IMG/VR virus record: IMGVR_UViG_3300012078_000002
Span: 1 to 60,795 of that record
Strand: one strand, 5' to 3'
Length of the DNA: 60,795 nt
Source of the DNA: a virus
Shown: positions 34,242 to 60,795 of the stretch, one piece after another
How the letters are laid out: each line of letters starts with the position of its first letter
How positions within the stretch are numbered: the stretch's first letter is position 1
Made by a program: the position numbers and the translations under genes
Notes under the pieces: generated by a model
Told to the model about the DNA's origin: nothing
The model's database searches: none
What the model saw: only the letters and a program-made list of their open reading frames with translations

Positions 34242-34404
34242 CTCCTGGCTTTTATAGCGGTTCCACGCTAGAGTATTTGGTCTCTTAGTTGCTGTTTTGC
34301 AATTCTCGCTCCTGGCTTTTATAGCGGTTCCACGCTAGAGTATTTGGTCTCTTAGTTGCTGTTTTGCAATTCTCGCTCCTGGCTTTTATAGCGGTTCCAC
34401 GCTA
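34242..34404. repeat. 67-bp direct tandem repeat, 2.4 copies
   Basis: CTCCTGGCTTTTATAGCGGTTCCACGCTAGAGTATTTGGTCTCTTAGTTGCTGTTTTGCAATTCTCG at 34242..34308 and 34309..34375 (identical). A partial third copy occupies 34376..34404. Confidence 0.95.
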
Positions 34405-41662: not shown

Positions 41663-43066
41663 TTATATTAGACTTTCGCGCTTGCCTCTGTTGTTCTTTT
41701 CTGCAATTCCCGTAGTGGCATCGGGAGCGTCGTCGTGCGCATTTTTACCTTCTTTTTGATACCTTGTCATTGCTTTATAATATTCCGGCCACTTATCCCC
41801 CCAGTTGACAGGGAAGTAAACATGGTTCATTACCCACGTGCTGTTTGACAGAATTCTTGATTGCTTATTTTTCGACTGGTGAAAAGTGGCAACATGACAT
41901 TTGTTTGATCCATATCTATTTTTCAATTCAGTCTGCACGTTTCTCGCGAACCCTCTGCCGCCATTATTAGATTCGATGTCTGCCGTATTTACGTTATCGT
42001 CATAAAGCATTTTGGCAGTAGCTGGTTCTGTAATCTCCATGCCCGCTTTGGTGTATAGAACATTAATGACGTAAGCTTCATTGTTATACACTACATAGTT
42101 AATGCTGCAAAGATAATCGTCGCCGGTATCTGCTGTATCTGTATAATTCTTGACCGATGAATAGAGCATGTTGCCGCTCTGATCCTTCGGCAGTTCGGTA
42201 TAAGTCTTGAGAGAAGTATAAAGCCGCCCTTTCAGATCTATAGGCTCCTGCTGATAATTTGCGCTGGCTATGTTGTCACCCATTGCTCTCACTTTGGCAT
42301 CATAGGACTTCCGGGACAGGATTTCGTCACAAAGCATGGTGCCGTCGTCCTGGAGGGCCTTCATGCTAATGTGGCGCATCTTTGCACCATCTTCTTTAAA
42401 ATGCTCCAGCGCCCGCCCTGCGAGGTCATCTGATGCCCAACGGGTCATGATGATGATGATCTTCCCGCCCTCTTCCAAGCGGGACAACATGGTATCTGCA
42501 AACCAAGTCCAGTGCTTTTCTTTTGTCAACTCATTATTGGCCTCTTCGGCATTTTTGATAAGGTCATCTATAATCAACAGCGTCGCGCCGAAACCAGTGG
42601 CCGTACCAGTGGGAGATGTGGCCAGGTAATTATTATATCCTCCATCCAGGCTCCACAGGTTCATGGCGCCGTCACCACACTTAATCCGGATGCCAGGAAA
42701 CACATCTGAAAACACCGGCTTGTATATATCGGCTTTTATTTCCTGTATATCATTCCTCACGTTTTTTGAAAACATGGTCGACAATGTTTCGTTATAGGAA
42801 CCGGTCATGATTTTTTGTTTTGGATCATTGCCCAACACCCACTCGACCAAAAGTCCAGCAGTGCGCGATTTTCCATGTCTGGGTGGCTCATTAACGATCA
42901 TTACATCTTCATCGGATTGGATGAAGTCTTGGAATTCATTGCAGAGATCGATTAGATAATGGCGATCTCTCTTGTAGAAACTGGGTGCTTTCAAGTTACA
43001 ATAAAAAAAGAACTCCCGCCGGGCAAGTTCTATCTTCGCACCTAATTGTATCAGTTTTTTATCCAT
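41663..43066 (-). CDS. terL: terminase large subunit
   Basis: Walker A-like PPRHGKS, Walker B LLIIDD, and the nuclease motif HDDAPDA near the C-terminus. Confidence 0.92.
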   Translation of the reverse strand: MDKKLIQLGAKIELARREFFFYCNLKAPSFYKRDRHYLIDLCNEFQDFIQSDEDVMIVNEPPRHGKSRTAGLLVEWVLGNDPKQKIMTGSYNETLSTMFSKNVRNDIQEIKADIYKPVFSDVFPGIRIKCGDGAMNLWSLDGGYNNYLATSPTGTATGFGATLLIIDDLIKNAEEANNELTKEKHWTWFADTMLSRLEEGGKIIIIMTRWASDDLAGRALEHFKEDGAKMRHISMKALQDDGTMLCDEILSRKSYDAKVRAMGDNIASANYQQEPIDLKGRLYTSLKTYTELPKDQSGNMLYSSVKNYTDTADTGDDYLCSINYVVYNNEAYVINVLYTKAGMEITEPATAKMLYDDNVNTADIESNNGGRGFARNVQTELKNRYGSNKCHVATFHQSKNKQSRILSNSTWVMNHVYFPVNWGDKWPEYYKAMTRYQKEGKNAHDDAPDATTGIAEKNNRGKRESLI

Positions 43067-43610
43067 CGTCTATCAGCTTCTTTAAATTTTCAGTCGACAG
43101 ACCGGCAAAGGGATTATTTACTTCCATTCCGCCAGACATTTCCACTTTGTCCTTGAACATGCCCAAGTGCCGGCCAATCAGTTCCAGTGATCCCTTTTTA
43201 TCGGTCAGCTTATATTTCTTAACATAGCCGACGAACTCCCTATCTTCACCGTATCCCTCATATACCTCCTGCACATCCAGACCCGCAATACATGCTGCCG
43301 TATCATCATCAAGCTCCGTAATATCTTTCGGTTTTCCATCGGCGTGAAATAGTTTTCTCGGGTCAAAGAATCCAAGCCGTCCCAATTCACGCAATACCGC
43401 GTCCTGGGTGATCTCCGTTCGCTGTTCTCTGTCCTTCATGCGCTGCTCAATGTATTCTACGATGTTAGTATTTGTTAGTGCCTTGCTTCCGTTAACCCTT
43501 GCGGCTTCATCCTTCTTACAACTTGGATACGCTGCCTTATAAGCGCGAGTGGCATTCAAGTCAATCAGGTATTCATCCACAAACCGCTTTTGTTTTTCAG
43601 TTAAGGACAT
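43059..43610 (-). CDS. terS: terminase small subunit (P27/Terminase_2-like)
   Basis: MSLTEKQKRFVDEYLIDLNATRAYKAAYP. Start moved from 43703. Confidence 0.85.
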   Translation of the reverse strand: MSLTEKQKRFVDEYLIDLNATRAYKAAYPSCKKDEAARVNGSKALTNTNIVEYIEQRMKDREQRTEITQDAVLRELGRLGFFDPRKLFHADGKPKDITELDDDTAACIAGLDVQEVYEGYGEDREFVGYVKKYKLTDKKGSLELIGRHLGMFKDKVEMSGGMEVNNPFAGLSTENLKKLIDDG

Positions 43611-44085
43611 ATCTATCACCCATCCGTATATAATTATTTGCGCTTGCCTCTCGCGCCGCTTGCCTACCTCGTCAGAGGATACCCACCTATTTTCCCCTCG
43701 CAAAAAGAGACACCTGCCGCGCTAAGCAGCAAATGCCTCTTCCAAAGGAGAGTGTCATAAAACAATCGGAACATCCGGACTTGAACCGGAATCTCGCAAC
43801 CACACCCGGTTGCTGTTCAACCGCTGTATCTTTGTTGAACCATATTCGCCCAGCGTATTTTTTCCCTTGTTTTTGCACAAGGTCGGTTTGCGCTACCACC
43901 TGTCGTAAGCATCCTATTTGTTCCTTTTGCGAAGACGCGAGCAATAGGCTAAGAACGTCGTCTTCTAATCGGCGACCGGGCTGTGACACCCGGAAGCCGT
44001 ATATAAAATTGGAGAGGAGGGACCGGGAATTCAGGAACATTATCAGGGAGTTAATATTGTTCCCATTACCGCTAATACAGTTATA
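43611..44085 (-). other. structured noncoding leader between the late-regulator candidate and terS
   Basis: 475 bp, relatively GC-rich, with only implausible ORFs. Nested stems: GAAGACG/CGTCTTC at 43931/43959 and CCTATT/AATAGG. A three-hairpin tRNA-like block lies at 43774..43840. Confidence 0.5.
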
Positions 44086-44520
44086 TCACATTATGTCGCT
44101 CAATTTGAACCCATTTTTCAAAAGATGCAAATTAAAGTAGAATAATCGGCGATATCCGTTGAAATCCGTCTTCCCTACGGGTATGCGTCCGTATTCATGA
44201 TCGTATTCGACCATCTCGTATGGTATGTTCTTGGTCACACTCCTTAAAATATGTCTGTATATGCTTGGATTCGCGCGGATCGCCGCCTCTTCTATCAGCT
44301 GGCAGTCCCTTCGCAGTTCTTCGTTCTGAATGGCCGTCCCCTCTGTCTGGTTGCTCACACCGGTTCCCCGCGGCATCCCGTCAAATTTTACGGCCGGTAG
44401 TCCGTATTTTATTTTCTTCTTTTTCTCCTCGTATTGCCGGCAGAATGCTCTAAGTTCGTCGTATCTGTCTTTGGAGATGCCGTAATCGTCCCAATTCAAG
44501 TCACGCACTCTTTTGTTCAT
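44086..44520 (-). CDS. candidate late-gene transcriptional regulator (ArpU/RinA-like position and pattern)
   Basis: MNKRVRDLNWDDYGISKDRYDELRAFCRQY...GMPRGTGVSNQTEGTAI...IEEAA. Last gene before the packaging module. Start moved behind AGGAGGA. Confidence 0.4.
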   Translation of the reverse strand: MNKRVRDLNWDDYGISKDRYDELRAFCRQYEEKKKKIKYGLPAVKFDGMPRGTGVSNQTEGTAIQNEELRRDCQLIEEAAIRANPSIYRHILRSVTKNIPYEMVEYDHEYGRIPVGKTDFNGYRRLFYFNLHLLKNGFKLSDIM

Positions 44521-44540
44521 TTTGGGTCCTCCTGTGAAAA

Positions 44541-44894
44541 TTAATTTTCTGCATACTCGCCAAGTTTGCAAGCTTGGTATATCTCCTCCTTGCTCGCGCT
44601 CGGTGCGACACTGCGGCAATCAGCTTTTTTATCAAATGTGCAGAATACATTGCCAAATACGTTGTCCAATTCTCCATTGCCCAAATATTCATCCAGTACT
44701 GATGTCACATTGTAGTAACTATCATAAGTCTCCCAAAATTCATTGTTTAGGATTATGTATCTGTCTCCTATTTTATCGCCACCGGCCAGCAATATCTTTT
44801 CAATCAAGGAACTATCAGTAGTTTTGTAATATGCCTTAATCTCCTTTACTAACTGGTTATAATCATAACTTTTAACCTCAACGCTTCGTCCCAT
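44541..44894 (-). CDS. hypothetical protein (117 aa)
   Basis: ORF track. AGGAGGA upstream. Confidence 0.65.
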   Translation of the reverse strand: MGRSVEVKSYDYNQLVKEIKAYYKTTDSSLIEKILLAGGDKIGDRYIILNNEFWETYDSYYNVTSVLDEYLGNGELDNVFGNVFCTFDKKADCRSVAPSASKEEIYQACKLGEYAEN

Positions 44895-45477: not shown

Positions 45478-45503
45478 TTCTTTCACCTCCATCAAAAATT
45501 AAT

Positions 45504-45725
45504 TCACTCAAGTTCAAACTCTACGCTTTCTGCTCCCTTAATAACTTTATTTATATTTCCACCGTGACTTTCAATAATTTCTGAAATATCGTCTGGATGG
45601 TCAGCATCTTCTATATCGTCCGCAATCATATCGGCAAAATTACTTCCATCTTCTTCATTATCCACATCAATTACATATGTGTTTGTTCTTTTTACACATT
45701 CACAAACATATAAATTGTATTTCAT
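45504..45725 (-). CDS. acidic small protein (73 aa)
   Basis: Start at the ATG behind GGAGGTG. Confidence 0.55.
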   Translation of the reverse strand: MKYNLYVCECVKRTNTYVIDVDNEEDGSNFADMIADDIEDADHPDDISEIIESHGGNINKVIKGAESVEFELE

Positions 45726-45745
45726 TTTCACACCTCCATCAAAAA

Positions 45746-45997
45746 TTAATTTACTGTCTCAAAAAGTGAATTCGGCAACATATCGGTCGCCCTTCCTACG
45801 TTTTCGGGAAAATCCTTATAAAACATTTTCACTGCTTTCTTGATTATCAACATTTCTCCTGGCTCCAGTCCGGTATCCTCGTAAAGCTTTAACCGCCGCT
45901 TCAACTCTTCTTCACGGCAGGCGTATTCGTTCCAGCCTTTCTCTTTAGCTTCCTGGTAGGTTATGTATTCCTTGTCTGTCGCTGTGTACCTGTCCAT
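45746..45997 (-). CDS. hypothetical protein (83 aa)
   Basis: Start moved to MDRYTATDKEY behind GGAGGTGA. Confidence 0.55.
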   Translation of the reverse strand: MDRYTATDKEYITYQEAKEKGWNEYACREEELKRRLKLYEDTGLEPGEMLIIKKAVKMFYKDFPENVGRATDMLPNSLFETVN

Positions 45998-46199: not shown

Positions 46200-46233
46200 G
46201 GATTTTATCCTCCTCTATCAAGTTTTAATTCAA

Positions 46234-46602
46234 TCAATCCTCACTTACGTAATCCTCCCCGCCGTGCTCCACAGCGTCCAGGTATGTTTCATAGTTTTCA
46301 TCACACCAGCGCCCCTCACACATGCTAGGGCCGTCAGGCGTTGCGGTATATGCACGTTTTCCATATTCTGTGTTGTCGCAATAATTTTCGCACAAGTAAT
46401 CGCCTAACTCTTCTCGGGTATATGGCTTCATCACCACAGTAAGCCCGTCAGCCGCATAGCACCCGCTGTAGCCATCCAACCAAACACATTCCTTGCCGTA
46501 TACCATCTGCGGTCCTGCTGTAACAATAAACTCCCTTCCCTTGTTTTTTTCATTGACGCAATACTTGTTGTTCATGGTAACTTTATCCCCTGGTTTCAAC
46601 AT
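46234..46602 (-). CDS. hypothetical Cys-rich protein (122 aa)
   Basis: ORF track. AGGAGG upstream. Confidence 0.65.
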   Translation of the reverse strand: MLKPGDKVTMNNKYCVNEKNKGREFIVTAGPQMVYGKECVWLDGYSGCYAADGLTVVMKPYTREELGDYLCENYCDNTEYGKRAYTATPDGPSMCEGRWCDENYETYLDAVEHGGEDYVSED

Positions 46603-46843: not shown

Positions 46844-48025
46844 TTAAATGTTCATGTTCTCCGGGATAACCCCTGGGTAATCCCCTAATGTCATTTGCCC
46901 TTTTATTTCTTCATTGGTAGCAGTTTTCTGCTGCTCTTTGTCCCATGCTTGTCTGAATGTCTTGTATGAATTGTATTGTTGGCGGTATCGATAGCTGTCG
47001 CCAAACACATTCCATGCGGCTTTAACCAGGTTTGGTTCAAACGGCCTTATCTTCTCTAAGTCTTCCGTCGCCTTTGCTGATATGGAGCATCCACAACACC
47101 CTGTACGCGTTAATCCATACACCTCATAGGCATCCGAATAGCGGAGTCCATAGTAATCTTTGTACCACTGCTTATCCGCATCCGACACATAAAACAGGGG
47201 CCGGAGCCTGTATTTTCCGTCAGCTGTTTCGGAAAAACACATTGAGGTATTATCCTTCCGTGGGACAGATCGCATACCGCCCTCGTCCCTGCGCTCGCCC
47301 GTTATAACCATATCGAATGACCGTTGGACACTGTGCGCTACCTGCTTTTTACAATAGTCGCAACATTTGTTGCTGACATTAAAAGGGATCGGATTGTCAG
47401 TTATAAAATCCAACATATACTTTGATGAATTTATAACTAACTGAATATCTGGCCTTGGCTCTCCCTTGGAATTACAGCAACATAAAAAATTAATTGTTGT
47501 TTCACATCCAGGATAGCGCTTTTTAAGTTCCGCCCGTTTTGCCGCCTTGTCCTCTGCGTCTGCGTATTCCTTATGTATTGACAGCGGAATATTTTTACGC
47601 TGTATACCCTCCAGACCGGCCGACATAATCTTTGAAACAAATGGCTGACCATATTCCCTTGTGGCTTGTACGATATTCTTCTTTGGCCGGTGTTTGGTAA
47701 TTGTTACGCCATATAGTGATTCCATTTCGACTACATGACGCTTTATTGCTTCCATTTCGAGCCCCGTGTTAAAAAAGGCATAATGGACGGAAGGGAAGCC
47801 GAATGTCTCGCGAACCTGCTCTATCAGGTGAAGAAGAATGTCGCTATCACTCCCACCAGAGTAAGAACAAACTGCGTTTGGATGCTCTTTAAGTCTTTTT
47901 GCAACAATGCTTTTTATAGCCTCAAATTTAGCCGGTGCGCTAAAGTCCGCATATGCCGGGCGATCTGTATATACTTTGCTTTTATAATTGTCCTTCATTG
48001 TTTTACCGAAAGGAGCCGTGTACAC
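46844..48025 (-). CDS. PAPS-reductase-family PP-loop protein with Cys-Cys clusters
   Basis: PP-loop CSYSGGSDS, plus FLCCCNS, NKCCDYCKK and TGCCGCS. The start is uncertain (GTG at 48025 or ATG at 47998). Confidence 0.8.
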   Translation of the reverse strand: MYTAPFGKTMKDNYKSKVYTDRPAYADFSAPAKFEAIKSIVAKRLKEHPNAVCSYSGGSDSDILLHLIEQVRETFGFPSVHYAFFNTGLEMEAIKRHVVEMESLYGVTITKHRPKKNIVQATREYGQPFVSKIMSAGLEGIQRKNIPLSIHKEYADAEDKAAKRAELKKRYPGCETTINFLCCCNSKGEPRPDIQLVINSSKYMLDFITDNPIPFNVSNKCCDYCKKQVAHSVQRSFDMVITGERRDEGGMRSVPRKDNTSMCFSETADGKYRLRPLFYVSDADKQWYKDYYGLRYSDAYEVYGLTRTGCCGCSISAKATEDLEKIRPFEPNLVKAAWNVFGDSYRYRQQYNSYKTFRQAWDKEQQKTATNEEIKGQMTLGDYPGVIPENMNI

Positions 48026-49987: not shown

Positions 49988-50010
49988 GTTTACCCTCCTT
50001 AAAAATTAAT

Positions 50011-50238
50011 TCACCCGAACATTTCAATTTGCCCGTCACACCCATCACACTGCCGCTGCTTCACTTCCCGCGGCTTATACGTTTTGTCCAGGTCAAACGC
50101 ATCCATCGGATTAAGGTCAAATAACTTACAGTGATTGACTGACTTCGCGCTTGCCTCGCTCATTGTCTTTTTCTTTTCGTTACAGTAGATACCATTCCCC
50201 GTCACAAGGTAAGAGCAGTACCGGCAGTATTGTCTCAT
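50011..50238 (-). CDS. small Cys-rich protein (75 aa)
   Basis: CRYCSY...CDGCDG. AGGAGGTG upstream. Confidence 0.6.
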   Translation of the reverse strand: MRQYCRYCSYLVTGNGIYCNEKKKTMSEASAKSVNHCKLFDLNPMDAFDLDKTYKPREVKQRQCDGCDGQIEMFG

Positions 50239-53923: not shown

Positions 53924-54672
53924 GTCTCGTCCTCCTGTACATAGTCCAATATTGATTTGTTTAAAAGGGTGTCGAAGTTTTTGTAAAATTCCAAGTCTTT
54001 CCCACCTGCCTCCTGTTCTCGTACATAGGCCCTTACGGCGATGTACATCTGACGGTTGGTCAGTTTGATTGTGCGGCCATTGATCTTCCGGCCCTTCAAC
54101 CATCCAAGGTAATGTTCGTAAGCTTTGGCTCTGCCTTTCTTCCTGGGGTATATCGCATATATGGTGGCGAAATCTTCTTCCCGCGTATCTGGTTTTTCGG
54201 ATTCAGAGTTTACTTGTTCGACGCCCGGCGAACAAAAGAGTTTTTTATTATCTTCTTTACATTCTTTCTTTCTAACATTCTTGTTAGTGTTCACTTGTTG
54301 TTCACTCGTTGTTCGCTCGTTGTTCACTTGTTGTTCAATTTGTTGTTCACTGCTTTGGTATTTACCCCAATTCGTCAAGGATATAAGCCGATTTTTGGTG
54401 CAAGTTTGTTGTTCAATCTGTTGTTCGATTTCGAACCGTTTCAGTACGCGTTGCACTTTGCTTTCGTTGATCAACAATTCAGCTGATATTGACTTCCTGC
54501 CGGTTATCAGCTGCCCCGGTTGCAGCTTTATCCTTGTTCCGTCAAATATCACATCTTGCTCGGCGTGGGTTGCATTAAGGAGTAAGTATATCCATATCGC
54601 TATGTGATCGGCATCCTTGCAAACTACCGGATTATTAAGCATTTGGCGGTGAATCTTTACGTATCCCTCCAT
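53920..54672 (-). CDS. replisome organiser / DnaD-like replication initiator
   Basis: N-terminal winged-helix-like YVKIHRQMLNNPVV...LITGRKSISAELLINESKVQRVLKRFE. Lies directly upstream of dnaB and contains the iteron array. Confidence 0.7.
   Translation of the reverse strand: MEGYVKIHRQMLNNPVVCKDADHIAIWIYLLLNATHAEQDVIFDGTRIKLQPGQLITGRKSISAELLINESKVQRVLKRFEIEQQIEQQTCTKNRLISLTNWGKYQSSEQQIEQQVNNERTTSEQQVNTNKNVRKKECKEDNKKLFCSPGVEQVNSESEKPDTREEDFATIYAIYPRKKGRAKAYEHYLGWLKGRKINGRTIKLTNRQMYIAVRAYVREQEAGGKDLEFYKNFDTLLNKSILDYVQEDET
54297..54428. repeat. iteron-like 9-mers GTTGTTC(A/G)(C/A), 7 copies (candidate origin)
   Basis: Copies start at 54297, 54308, 54319, 54330 and 54342 (11-12 bp phasing) and at 54408 and 54420, all inside the organiser gene. 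Confidence 0.6.
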
Positions 54673-60427: not shown

Positions 60428-60795
60428 TTGCCGATTCCTCCGTTTTGTTTTCAAAAGCAATCATCTCAAATCTGTCAAGCGAATCTGCCGGAACCATGAC
60501 TTTGATTTTGGGATAATTTTTAAAGTCTCTGGCGGTGGAGCTTCCCCGCATCTCGCCGACATTGGAGCTTCCCCGCATCTCGCCGACATTGGAGCTTTCC
60601 CACATCACGCCGACATTGGAGCTTTCCCACATCACGCCGACATTGGAGCTTCCCCGCATCACGCCGACATTGGAGCTTCCCCGCATCTCGCCGACATTGG
60701 AGCTTTCCCACATCACGCCGACATTGGAGCTTTCCCACATCACGCCGACATTGGAGCTTTCCCACATCACGCCGACATTGGAGCTTTCCCACATC
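60408..60795 (-). CDS. Tandem-repeat protein, C-terminal part (enters the window at 60795)
   Basis: ORF 60408..60794 carries SSNVG[V/E]M[W/R][E/G] repeats, then SSTARDFKNYPKIKVMVPADSLDRFEMIAFENKTEESANGSKSE. Same phase as the ORF that leaves at base 1. Confidence 0.8.
   Translation of the reverse strand, partial: MWESSNVGVMWESSNVGVMWESSNVGVMWESSNVGEMRGSSNVGVMRGSSNVGVMWESSNVGVMWESSNVGEMRGSSNVGEMRGSSTARDFKNYPKIKVMVPADSLDRFEMIAFENKTEESANGSKSE
60538..60795. repeat. 27-bp tandem repeat array, 9.6 units (window-end part)
   Basis: Same unit as 1..351, beginning at 60538. The last unit is truncated after 15 nt by the window edge. Confidence 0.97.
60673..60795. repeat. 123-bp terminal direct repeat (identical to 1..123)
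   Basis: Unit-variant order (C-G-T unit, three T-A-A units, then the first 15 nt of the next unit) is the same at both ends. Read base by base. Confidence 0.9.

Follow-up and report, generated by a model that had tools for sequence, protein, structure and literature searches.

The 60,795-nt sequence of IMG/VR virus record IMGVR_UViG_3300012078_000002 (below, the window) carries nearly every gene on its minus strand, among them a candidate late regulator followed by terS, the first gene of the late or packaging operon. From the regulator stop to the terS ATG the distance is 475 nt (43611-44085), both flanking genes being on the minus strand. A previous reading of the bare sequence (the sequence-only reading) had picked out this gap, with the regulator gene ending at 44086 and terS starting at 43610, as a structured leader in front of the late operon, and the gap is present as described. 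Based on a comparison with related phages, we conclude that the region is a composite and probably a modular late-control leader of the kind known for the Ltr regulators, that it contains the relic of a tRNA gene, and that it finds no support as a Q/put element, a riboswitch or a packaging site. The layout as such is known; the regulator comes from none of the described Ltr families, and a conserved hairpin (HP2) and tRNA cargo are variant features. The elements of the locus are, from the regulator gene towards the late genes:

44086..44523, minus strand: candidate late regulator of 145 amino acids, an open reading frame (ORF) with the ribosome-binding site AGGAGGA upstream
44098..44118, minus strand: Box A, AAAAATGGGTTCAAATTGAGC, with two copies of the direct repeat AAAWTGRG and a -35-like TTCAAA at 44104-44109
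44076..44088, minus strand: Box B, TGA (the regulator stop) followed by TATAAC, extended -10-like; TGATATTATGRTA in relatives
44033..44064, minus strand: HP1, the first hairpin past the box (GGGAACA...UGUUCC), predicted at -11.2 kcal/mol in the window
44011..44022, minus strand: pyrimidine box CCCUCCUCUCC, a recurrent motif resembling an anti-Shine-Dalgarno sequence (CCUCC)
43970..43999, minus strand: HP2, a 12-bp hairpin with a closing U.G pair, the hexaloop GUCACA and the conserved apex GGGUGUCACAGCCC
43967..43972, minus strand: CCGATT, the upstream one of the two 6-nt direct repeats at the cassette borders, from comparison with the empty site
43764..43966, minus strand: 203-nt presence/absence cassette, the last 6 nt of which are the second CCGATT copy
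43766..43849, minus strand: tRNA-derived block in the cassette, collinear with tRNA genes of relatives
43774-43790, 43767-43773 and 43766, minus strand: T arm, acceptor 3′ strand UGUUCCG and A73 of the tRNA-derived block
43702-43739, minus strand: intrinsic terminator GAGGCAUUUGCUGC-UUAGC-GCGGCAGGUGUCUC followed by UUUUU, with a 14-bp stem extendable to 18 bp
43611..43701, minus strand: conserved pre-terS segment of about 90 nt with repeated AGGCAAGCG, AT-rich TAATTATATA and the terS ribosome-binding site
43059..43610, minus strand: terS (Pfam Terminase_2, E 7.5e-37)
41663-43066: terL, downstream of terS

Relatives were compared at two distances. The close relatives are 10 IMG/VR contigs (L001-L010) encoding the same regulator at 98-100% amino-acid identity. 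The distant set comprises 142 loci, obtained from 36 regulator homologues at 50-65% identity; those derived from genomes belong largely to Lachnospiraceae (Blautia, Anaerobutyricum, Oliverpabstia and others), and their spacer after the regulator gene is often 200-900 nt long. Its elements recur in the order stop-codon box, HP1 of variable sequence, CCUCC-like box, HP2, cargo, at least one intrinsic terminator and next gene, and a hairpin-rich leader with a terminator is found downstream of the regulator in nearly all relatives. The proposed layout of regulator, structured RNA, terminator and late operon is supported by these comparative data.

Two ORFs of 117 (minus strand) and 135 amino acids (plus strand) are present in the spacer, neither with a match in Pfam. 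Long ORFs are fragmented in the close relatives, reaching at most 88 amino acids in L002 and L006 and at most 49 in the relatives without the cassette, and the length of the 203-nt indel is not divisible by 3. Among close relatives, the pairwise difference is 21.6% at third codon positions of the regulator gene vs 3.6-5.8% in the constant segments of the leader, i.e., the region evolves 4-6 times more slowly than the third codon positions of its neighbouring gene. Judged by these rates, the non-coding DNA of the leader is under purifying selection over its full length. Since both ORFs are broken in relatives and the leader is constrained, we read the region as non-coding and constrained. It had also been called GC-rich, and its G+C content is indeed raised, but only mildly (49-51.5% vs 44.5% in the whole window). 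RNA of the minus strand is predicted to fold with -163.1 kcal/mol (z -3.16; 0 of 100 shuffled sequences were equally good), whereas the plus-strand fold (z -1.6) is not outstanding against shuffles.

Searches of Rfam at gathering and E-value thresholds with the window, L006 and L024 returned tRNAs in the relatives only, and apart from these no family, whether riboswitch, Intron_gpI, tmRNA, ROOL or GOLLD, was matched at the gathering score, the best matches (E 0.27-2.2) lying well under the cut-offs. The cmscan comparison with Rfam that the sequence-only reading had proposed as a check thus gave no family at threshold, and the suggested riboswitch-like element finds no Rfam family to support it. 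Neither the region nor the leader of L024 had a BLAST match among 50,697 records of deposited phages.

The candidate regulator, its stop-codon box and the terminator

The 145-amino-acid protein has no match in Pfam or NCBIfam. It resembles PHROG 11237 (unknown function; E 1e-16) and, weakly, phrog_248, annotated as transcriptional activator (E 3.7e-5). Its AlphaFold model (pLDDT 78.7) found nothing significant in the PDB using Foldseek, the top non-significant matches being sigma-A. A role as late regulator is plausible for this candidate. We rejected its assignment to the Q proteins, since there is no Pfam match and no structural match to them, so that the lambda Q-type system considered previously receives no support from the regulator. 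An assignment to the sigma factors was likewise rejected, given the Foldseek result and a negative hhalign comparison with sigma70_r4-like regulators (probability 0.7%).

At the end of the regulator gene, a conserved box lies over the stop codon. It reads TGA-TATAAC in the window and TGATATTAT in relatives. The ten positions of TGATATTATG, in which the TGA is the regulator stop, are nearly invariant in 38 distinct loci, and a block AAAWTGGGGACAAATTGAsC is located 10-11 nt upstream of it; Box A is conserved as DNA in 38 distinct relatives. Outside the lineage of the window, the box covers the stop codon in 34 of 47 distinct relatives. Both blocks are kept in L100, L049, L045 and L112, where the ORF stops earlier and the blocks are thus non-coding. 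This persistence indicates that they are conserved as DNA elements and did not arise through coding. An extended -10 promoter, TTCAAA-18-TATTAT preceded by a TG, is called by the promoter scan in L024, and the equivalent in the window is TTCAAA-18-TATAAC. A second regulator family, weakly sigma70_r4- or DUF722-like and unrelated by hhalign, has three copies of TGTTCG followed by TGTTATACT at the equivalent place, and then HP1, pyrimidine box and HP2 in the same order. To judge from the sequences, different repeats adjoining a shared extended -10-like element is the architecture of activator-dependent promoters. The conserved box would accordingly be the target of the regulator and, at the same time, a putative late promoter (P1) whose TG is supplied by the TGA stop.

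At the other end of the leader, a weak hairpin plus TCTTTTT had been noted before terS. A terminator element is present there, but it is strong rather than weak, with a 14-bp stem and U5. While the terminator scan detects the upper part of the hairpin, the stem predicted using RNAfold is 18 bp long, with -32.9 kcal/mol for the segment of 71 nt. Substitutions in relatives mostly exchange a wobble for a Watson-Crick pair or vice versa, although the upper stem is weakened in L009. In L007 and L008, the leader is kept up to GCGCAAATAATT, and after this mosaic joint a different terS follows. As the leader is retained despite the other terS, it belongs with the regulator module.

HP2, the exchangeable cassette and other repeats

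Downstream of the box, relatives have hairpins of different sequence at the place of HP1 (z averages -2.1 in 44 loci and is between -4.6 and -6.8 for most members of the close lineage), and a CCUCC/UCCUC motif separates HP1 and HP2 in most of them. HP2 itself reads UACGGCUUCCGGGU-GUCACA-GCCCGGUCGCCGAU, with the apex GGGU-GUCACA-GCCC. Our covariance model for it (R1) scores the window hairpin with 42.6 bits (E 5e-11) as the sole clear copy in the window. Downstream of regulator homologues, R1 finds 24 copies, all on the sense strand and 23 of them 40-90 nt past the stop codon (the copy in L114 follows at a distance of about 3 kb). In 0.79 Mb of unrelated viral DNA, R1 had no match. In 44 distinct hairpins, 11 of the 12 HP2 pairs show two-sided changes, a strong covariation. 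This set was chosen for pairing, and the percentage of paired positions is therefore not independent evidence. In a set selected on Watson-Crick pairs only, the non-Watson-Crick stem positions are 60 G.U vs 6 A.C; this bias indicates that the sense strand is under selection, either as RNA or as single-stranded DNA.

Several helices had been drawn in the sequence-only reading. All of them are present, but their support is unequal: the CCGGG/CCCGG pairing is the top of the deeply conserved HP2, whereas GAAGACG/CGTCTTC, CCTATT/AATAGG and CCTTGT/ACAAGG lack compensatory support and all lie within the 203-nt cassette, which is missing from 7 of the 10 close relatives.

An exact scan of IMG/VR for the 14-nt apex gave at least 119 sites. 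Among the 119 matches listed, 40 (31 distinct) extend by at least 4 further consecutive base pairs, most of them by at least 8, vs 1 of 120 extending into a hairpin in the loop-permuted control. The apex occurs in phages with unrelated regulators and unrelated capsid families, in two types of context. In the first, it is in a leader after small regulators and before tRNA genes or terS. In the second, it follows late-operon genes at 15-70 nt, and some of these hairpins have a U-rich tail; among the genes are those for major capsid proteins from three Pfam families (Phage_capsid, Phage_capsid_4 and SU10_MCP). Examples of hairpins with this apex are found in L184, L166, L194 and L272 (and L203, L250), the capsid-linked ones being 15-40 nt after major capsid genes; others lie after a DUF6711 gene or before a lysin that is GH25-like to judge from its sequence. 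HP2 matches no Rfam family, a literature search with the apex as a string found chance primer matches only, and nothing relevant on conserved hairpins downstream of capsid genes came up in a search by keyword. Dual hexaloops of the ANTAR type, loops like that of the iron-responsive element and bacterial SECIS were considered for the HP2 loop and rejected, as the sequence does not fit. Its identification as a T-loop minihelix mimic or as a substrate (UGU) of tRNA-guanine transglycosylase is speculation.

Since the same apex caps hairpins, some of them U-tailed, a few tens of nucleotides after highly expressed genes in unrelated phages, we infer that HP2 could be a signal for RNA 3′-end formation or stabilisation, or for processing, read by some conserved factor. 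Tentatively, and as a possibility short of a probability, we suggest that HP2 represents an undescribed phage RNA motif by which a conserved host or phage factor would set 3′ ends, control termination and read-through, or direct processing. As part of the same tentative proposal, the motif would stand at two punctuation points of late operons: one is the leader that precedes the tRNA genes or terS, the other the stretch immediately following the gene of the major capsid protein. The 8-mer CCGGGUGU is common to the 5′ arm of HP2 (43986-43993) and the tRNA-like “anticodon” arm (43803-43810), which could be due to chance, gene conversion or alternative pairing.

Between HP2 and the terminator, content is freely exchanged among relatives. 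Using Rfam and ARAGORN, genes for tRNA-Lys, Met, Ile, Trp and other tRNAs were detected in relatives after the regulator and before the gene that follows. Odd tRNA-like genes also serve as cargo, as do morons, e.g., methyltransferases and HicA-like toxins. In the lineage of the window, the cargo is the 203-nt cassette, which is present in the window, L002, L004 and L006 and absent from L001, L003, L005 and L007-L010; the empty site of the latter seven reads CCCGGTCG-CCGATT-GTTT. In IMG/VR and the JGI metagenomes, the cassette is confined to this lineage.

The tRNA-like block that had been seen here is real in so far as its T arm (UCCGG-UUCAAGU-CCGGA) and acceptor 3′ strand are present and the 3′ 84 nt of the cassette are collinear with tRNA-Ile(UAU), Trp and Lys genes in the same slot of relatives. 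It shares with these tRNAs a 5′ end GGAAyAU-AGCUCA and, at the 3′ end, the T arm plus ...UGUUCCG-A-UU, and nhmmer aligns the L044 tRNA-Ile(UAU) with the L006 block over its full length (E 0.008). However, neither ARAGORN (default, intron, relaxed and tmRNA settings) nor the Rfam tRNA model calls a tRNA in the block, which has a D-arm-like hairpin, an expanded D loop and a non-canonical “anticodon” hairpin of 6 bp and 6 nt. All 7 bp of the acceptor stem are intact in L006 (CGGAACA/UGUUCCG), whereas 2 of them are disrupted in the window. Between window and L006, the 3′ 47 nt of the block are identical and the 5′ part is 29% different, which is at or above the rate at third codon positions (25.5%); the D-arm-like stem shows a compensatory change. 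From these sequences we read the cassette as a probably decaying tRNA cargo gene whose 3′ hairpins are still constrained, and as gained or lost via the CCGATT microhomology that the HP2 tail has in common with tRNA 3′ ends.

Other identities of the cassette were tried and rejected: a miniature inverted-repeat transposable element or another widespread mobile element (no second copy in the window, and the cassette occurs in this lineage only in IMG/VR and the JGI metagenomes), a group I intron (no register of CCGATT gives U at the 5′ exon end and G at the intron end, and Rfam Intron_gpI does not match), an attP made of a tRNA 3′ half (the block is missing in 7 of 10 relatives), and the template repeat of a diversity-generating retroelement (no second copy in the window).

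Further structured RNAs occupy this slot in distant relatives. Odd tRNA-like genes lie downstream of the regulator in L040 (3755-3822), L041 (2956-3023) and L180 (about 1930-2000), and also in L095, L099, L111 and L096/L110; their acceptor and T arms are intact, and the anticodon arm is truncated (tetraloop-like) or expanded. The copies of L040 and L041 reach the Rfam tRNA threshold, and ARAGORN calls none of these genes. In L024 (3545-3740), a pseudoknot-like, covarying block follows HP2, with the pattern CAGGC..GACGGU..GCCUG..hairpin..ACCGUC; it occurs also in L040, L041, L219, L192 and L211, with an outer stem CGGC/GCCG in L211. A structured block of about 130 nt without Rfam match comes next, upstream of tRNA-Lys. 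The post-HP2 block of L024 and the others may be a larger unknown leader RNA.

Elsewhere in the window, 27-bp tandem arrays of GAGCTTTCCCACATCACGCCGACATTG stand at both ends (1-359, 13.3 copies; 60536-60795, 9.6 copies; 96% matches), which probably form one long array that makes the contig circular or terminally redundant; the array may act as iterons or encode a repeat of 9 amino acids. Within the structural gene block, an intergenic stretch (34242-34404) holds 2.4 perfect copies of a 67-bp tandem repeat. The 11-bp repeat TGTTCACTTGT occurs 5.7 times at 54288-54351 and resembles an iteron or operator array; its core TGTTCAC is similar to the TGTTCG/TGTTCAC boxes that other phages have beside late regulators of the sigma70_r4-like type. 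Several small early genes, including the regulator gene, are preceded by copies of a motif about 25 nt long (minus strand AATTAATTTTTGATGGAGGTG; 44516-44551, 45481-45508, 45728-45756, 46210-46234 and 49988-50015), which may be a shared cassette for translation initiation or a promoter. The early region also encodes a 393-amino-acid protein (46844-48025) similar to phosphoadenosine phosphosulfate reductases (phrog_424, E 4.3e-26) with an SGGSDS PP-loop motif, which may be an auxiliary or DNA-modification gene.

Readings of the region

On balance, we lean towards a cis-regulatory leader, built of modules, that would link the late-gene regulator to the packaging or late operon. Transcription from P1, or read-in from the regulator mRNA, would yield a leader RNA with HP1, the CCUCC box and HP2, the apex of which appears to be under selection at the RNA level. 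The cargo slot would follow downstream of HP2, filled here by the cassette with the decayed tRNA as its 3′ half. To reach terS, RNA polymerase would have to read through the terminator, unless an unrecognised promoter is present in the last 90 nt. Since the terminator stands 90 nt before terS, late expression is probably controlled at this point, as at lambda tR′. We infer this mechanism, i.e., the start at P1, the read-through of the terminator and the role of HP2, from the arrangement of the elements. Four observations speak against it. The P1 candidate of the window (TATAAC with the -35 TTCAAA) fails the promoter scan's own rule. Box B also has the form of a direct repeat, TGATAT-TA-TGATAT, which would make it a binding site instead of a -10. 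HP2 is absent from many relatives that have box and terminator, and is hence not essential to the layout. Finally, in the RinA system studied by experiment (PMC3152322), the late 5′ end is 23 bp upstream of terS, the activator site is >155 bp upstream and a terminator lies between the two, and the same may hold here.

The last point leads to a stricter analogy with RinA, which we regard as possible but doubtful. The box would then be the binding site of the activator only, and the late promoter and start would lie in the conserved 90 nt before terS; the leader, HP2 and the cassette would form the 3′ untranslated tail of the regulator mRNA, ending at the terminator, and the activator would act from a distance. 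It fits this proposal that the pre-terS segment is strongly conserved (mean pairwise difference 5.8% vs 21.6% at third codon positions), that it stays with the regulator module in L007 and L008 despite their different terS, that it holds the repeated AGGCAAGCG and, about 20 nt upstream of the ATG, the AT-rich TAATTATATA, and that HP2 is shortly downstream of a stop codon in every context, as expected of a 3′-end hairpin. Nevertheless, a scan of 43611-43700 found no sigma-70-type promoter. Moreover, the terS start follows the terminator of L097 after no more than about 40 nt and the last tRNA of L024 after about 37 nt, leaving no room for a canonical separate terS promoter; at least there, late transcription must come from upstream and pass the terminator. 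The extended -10-like element, common to two unrelated regulator families with different repeats, also looks like a promoter rather than a protein-specific site. A cis-acting antitermination RNA of the put type, in which HP1 and HP2 would make RNA polymerase resist the downstream terminator, had been suggested earlier and is in our view very unlikely. Two hairpins do follow the promoter-like box directly and precede the terminator, and the invariance of the HP2 apex across phages with unrelated regulators would fit a host target, e.g., RNA polymerase. However, the hairpins are about 33 nt apart here and adjacent in the put RNA of HK022, many relatives keep box and terminator without HP2, and the same apex caps U-tailed, terminator-looking hairpins after capsid genes.

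The region might also be an independent small-RNA gene, its RNA of about 360 nt (about 155 nt without the cassette) extending from P1 to the terminator and acting in trans, like lambda 6S, or as a tRNA carrier. The region has the promoter-like box at one end and the strong terminator at the other, purifying selection acts over all of it, and relatives have tRNA genes within the same unit. Yet the content from HP2 to the terminator is freely exchanged among relatives and no target or seed region was identified; such an RNA is unlikely, and it would be compatible with the leader model rather than exclusive of it. Somewhat less likely still is a functional, non-decoding tRNA mimic (a processing signal or decoy) in place of the decaying tRNA gene that we favour for the cassette. 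The 3′ 47 nt shared without change with L006 at a third-position divergence of about 25%, the perfect acceptor stem of the L006 lineage, the compensatory change in the D-arm-like stem and the several relatives having odd tRNA-like genes with intact acceptor and T arms and aberrant anticodon arms would all suit a mimic. They are opposed by the complete lack of the block in 7 of 10 close relatives, the 2 broken acceptor pairs of the window, a 5′ part that differs from L006 by at least the third-codon rate, and the missing ARAGORN and Rfam calls. Hardly credible, lastly, is a cos/pac packaging site, also raised in the sequence-only reading, or a gene for the 117- or 135-amino-acid protein, for which adjacency to terS is the sole support. 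No contig of the close lineage ends in the region, the window ending in the 27-bp array instead; the leader remains with the regulator when terS is exchanged; the two ORFs are not conserved; and the G.U bias indicates selection at the RNA level.

Relation to known late control systems

Gram-positive phages offer, in their Ltr (RinA/ArpU) late control regions (PMC3753634, PMC3152322), the closest known system and the best-documented analogue of the leader proposed here. Five families of Ltr regulators, RinA, ArpU, LtrA/sigma70_r4, LtrB/DUF1492 and LtrC, are described there as encoded directly upstream of terS, with a terminator in the regulator-terS spacer and the remaining spacer modular and variable in sequence and size (PMC3753634). 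In phi11 and 80alpha, the RinA-dependent 5′ end is 23 bp upstream of terS and >155 bp from the binding site (PMC3152322). As far as these accounts go, the region resembles Ltr loci in its small regulator gene directly upstream of terS, in short direct repeats at or just past the end of this gene (here two copies each of AAAWTGRG and TGATAT), in a terminator within the spacer (here a 14-18 bp stem with U5 at 43702-43739), and in a repeat block that accompanies the regulator within an otherwise modular spacer. In contrast, the present regulator is in none of the five families and does not resemble the sigma70_r4-like group by profile; the box includes the stop codon and is extended -10-like, its binding and start sites being predicted from sequence; and a conserved hairpin like HP2 or tRNA cargo in the spacer is not mentioned for Ltr in the sections consulted of either source. 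The box suggests a reading simpler than that for RinA, namely initiation at the box and read-through of the terminator, which would be functionally similar to lambda pR′-tR′.

In the lambda Q unit, pR′ lies right after the regulator gene, and the 6S leader ends at the strong terminator tR′ before the late operon. The region shares with it a short leader, a strong intrinsic terminator before the whole late operon and a promoter (putative here) after the regulator; with a terminator placed in this way, late expression would need read-through. Unlike in lambda, there is no protein of the Q family, no Q-binding element or pause signal can be shown, and the leader carries exchangeable tRNA cargo. 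The put RNA of HK022 forms adjacent promoter-proximal stem-loops upstream of terminators. Promoter-proximal stem-loops before a terminator are found here too, given the putative promoter, but with about 33 nt between them they are not adjacent, many relatives keep the layout without HP2, and its apex also caps terminator-like hairpins. With phage tRNA genes and pseudogenes, the 3′ half of the cassette has in common its collinearity with tRNA-Ile, Trp and Lys and the retained T arm and CCA-less 3′ end; it departs from them in the expanded D loop, the non-canonical “anticodon” arm, the broken acceptor stem of the window and the lack of a call by tRNA finders. PeSLs of T4-type phages are mobile cassettes of promoter and stem-loop that mediate the shuffling of modules. 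A conserved hairpin at the border that joins different cargo or modules is similar to these elements; unlike in PeSLs, the sole junction seen here is a 6-nt microhomology, and recombination at HP2 itself is putative.

The switching on of late genes by RinA/ArpU-type regulators is still an unsolved problem. In the phages studied, the binding site is separated from the mapped start by >155 bp and a terminator (PMC3152322). The present loci lend themselves to a clean comparison, since a conserved box of the extended -10 type stands by the repeats of both unrelated regulator families, followed by leader and terminator, and this shared architecture makes initiation at the box plus terminator read-through directly testable. 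In addition, phages of gut-associated Lachnospiraceae use the spacer between regulator and terS as a slot for cargo, namely tRNA genes and odd tRNA-like RNAs. The HP2 motif, with its sequence-invariant apex, recurs after capsid genes in unrelated phages and is a candidate for a new cis-element in the annotation of transcription units; it may represent a new and widely used phage RNA hairpin.

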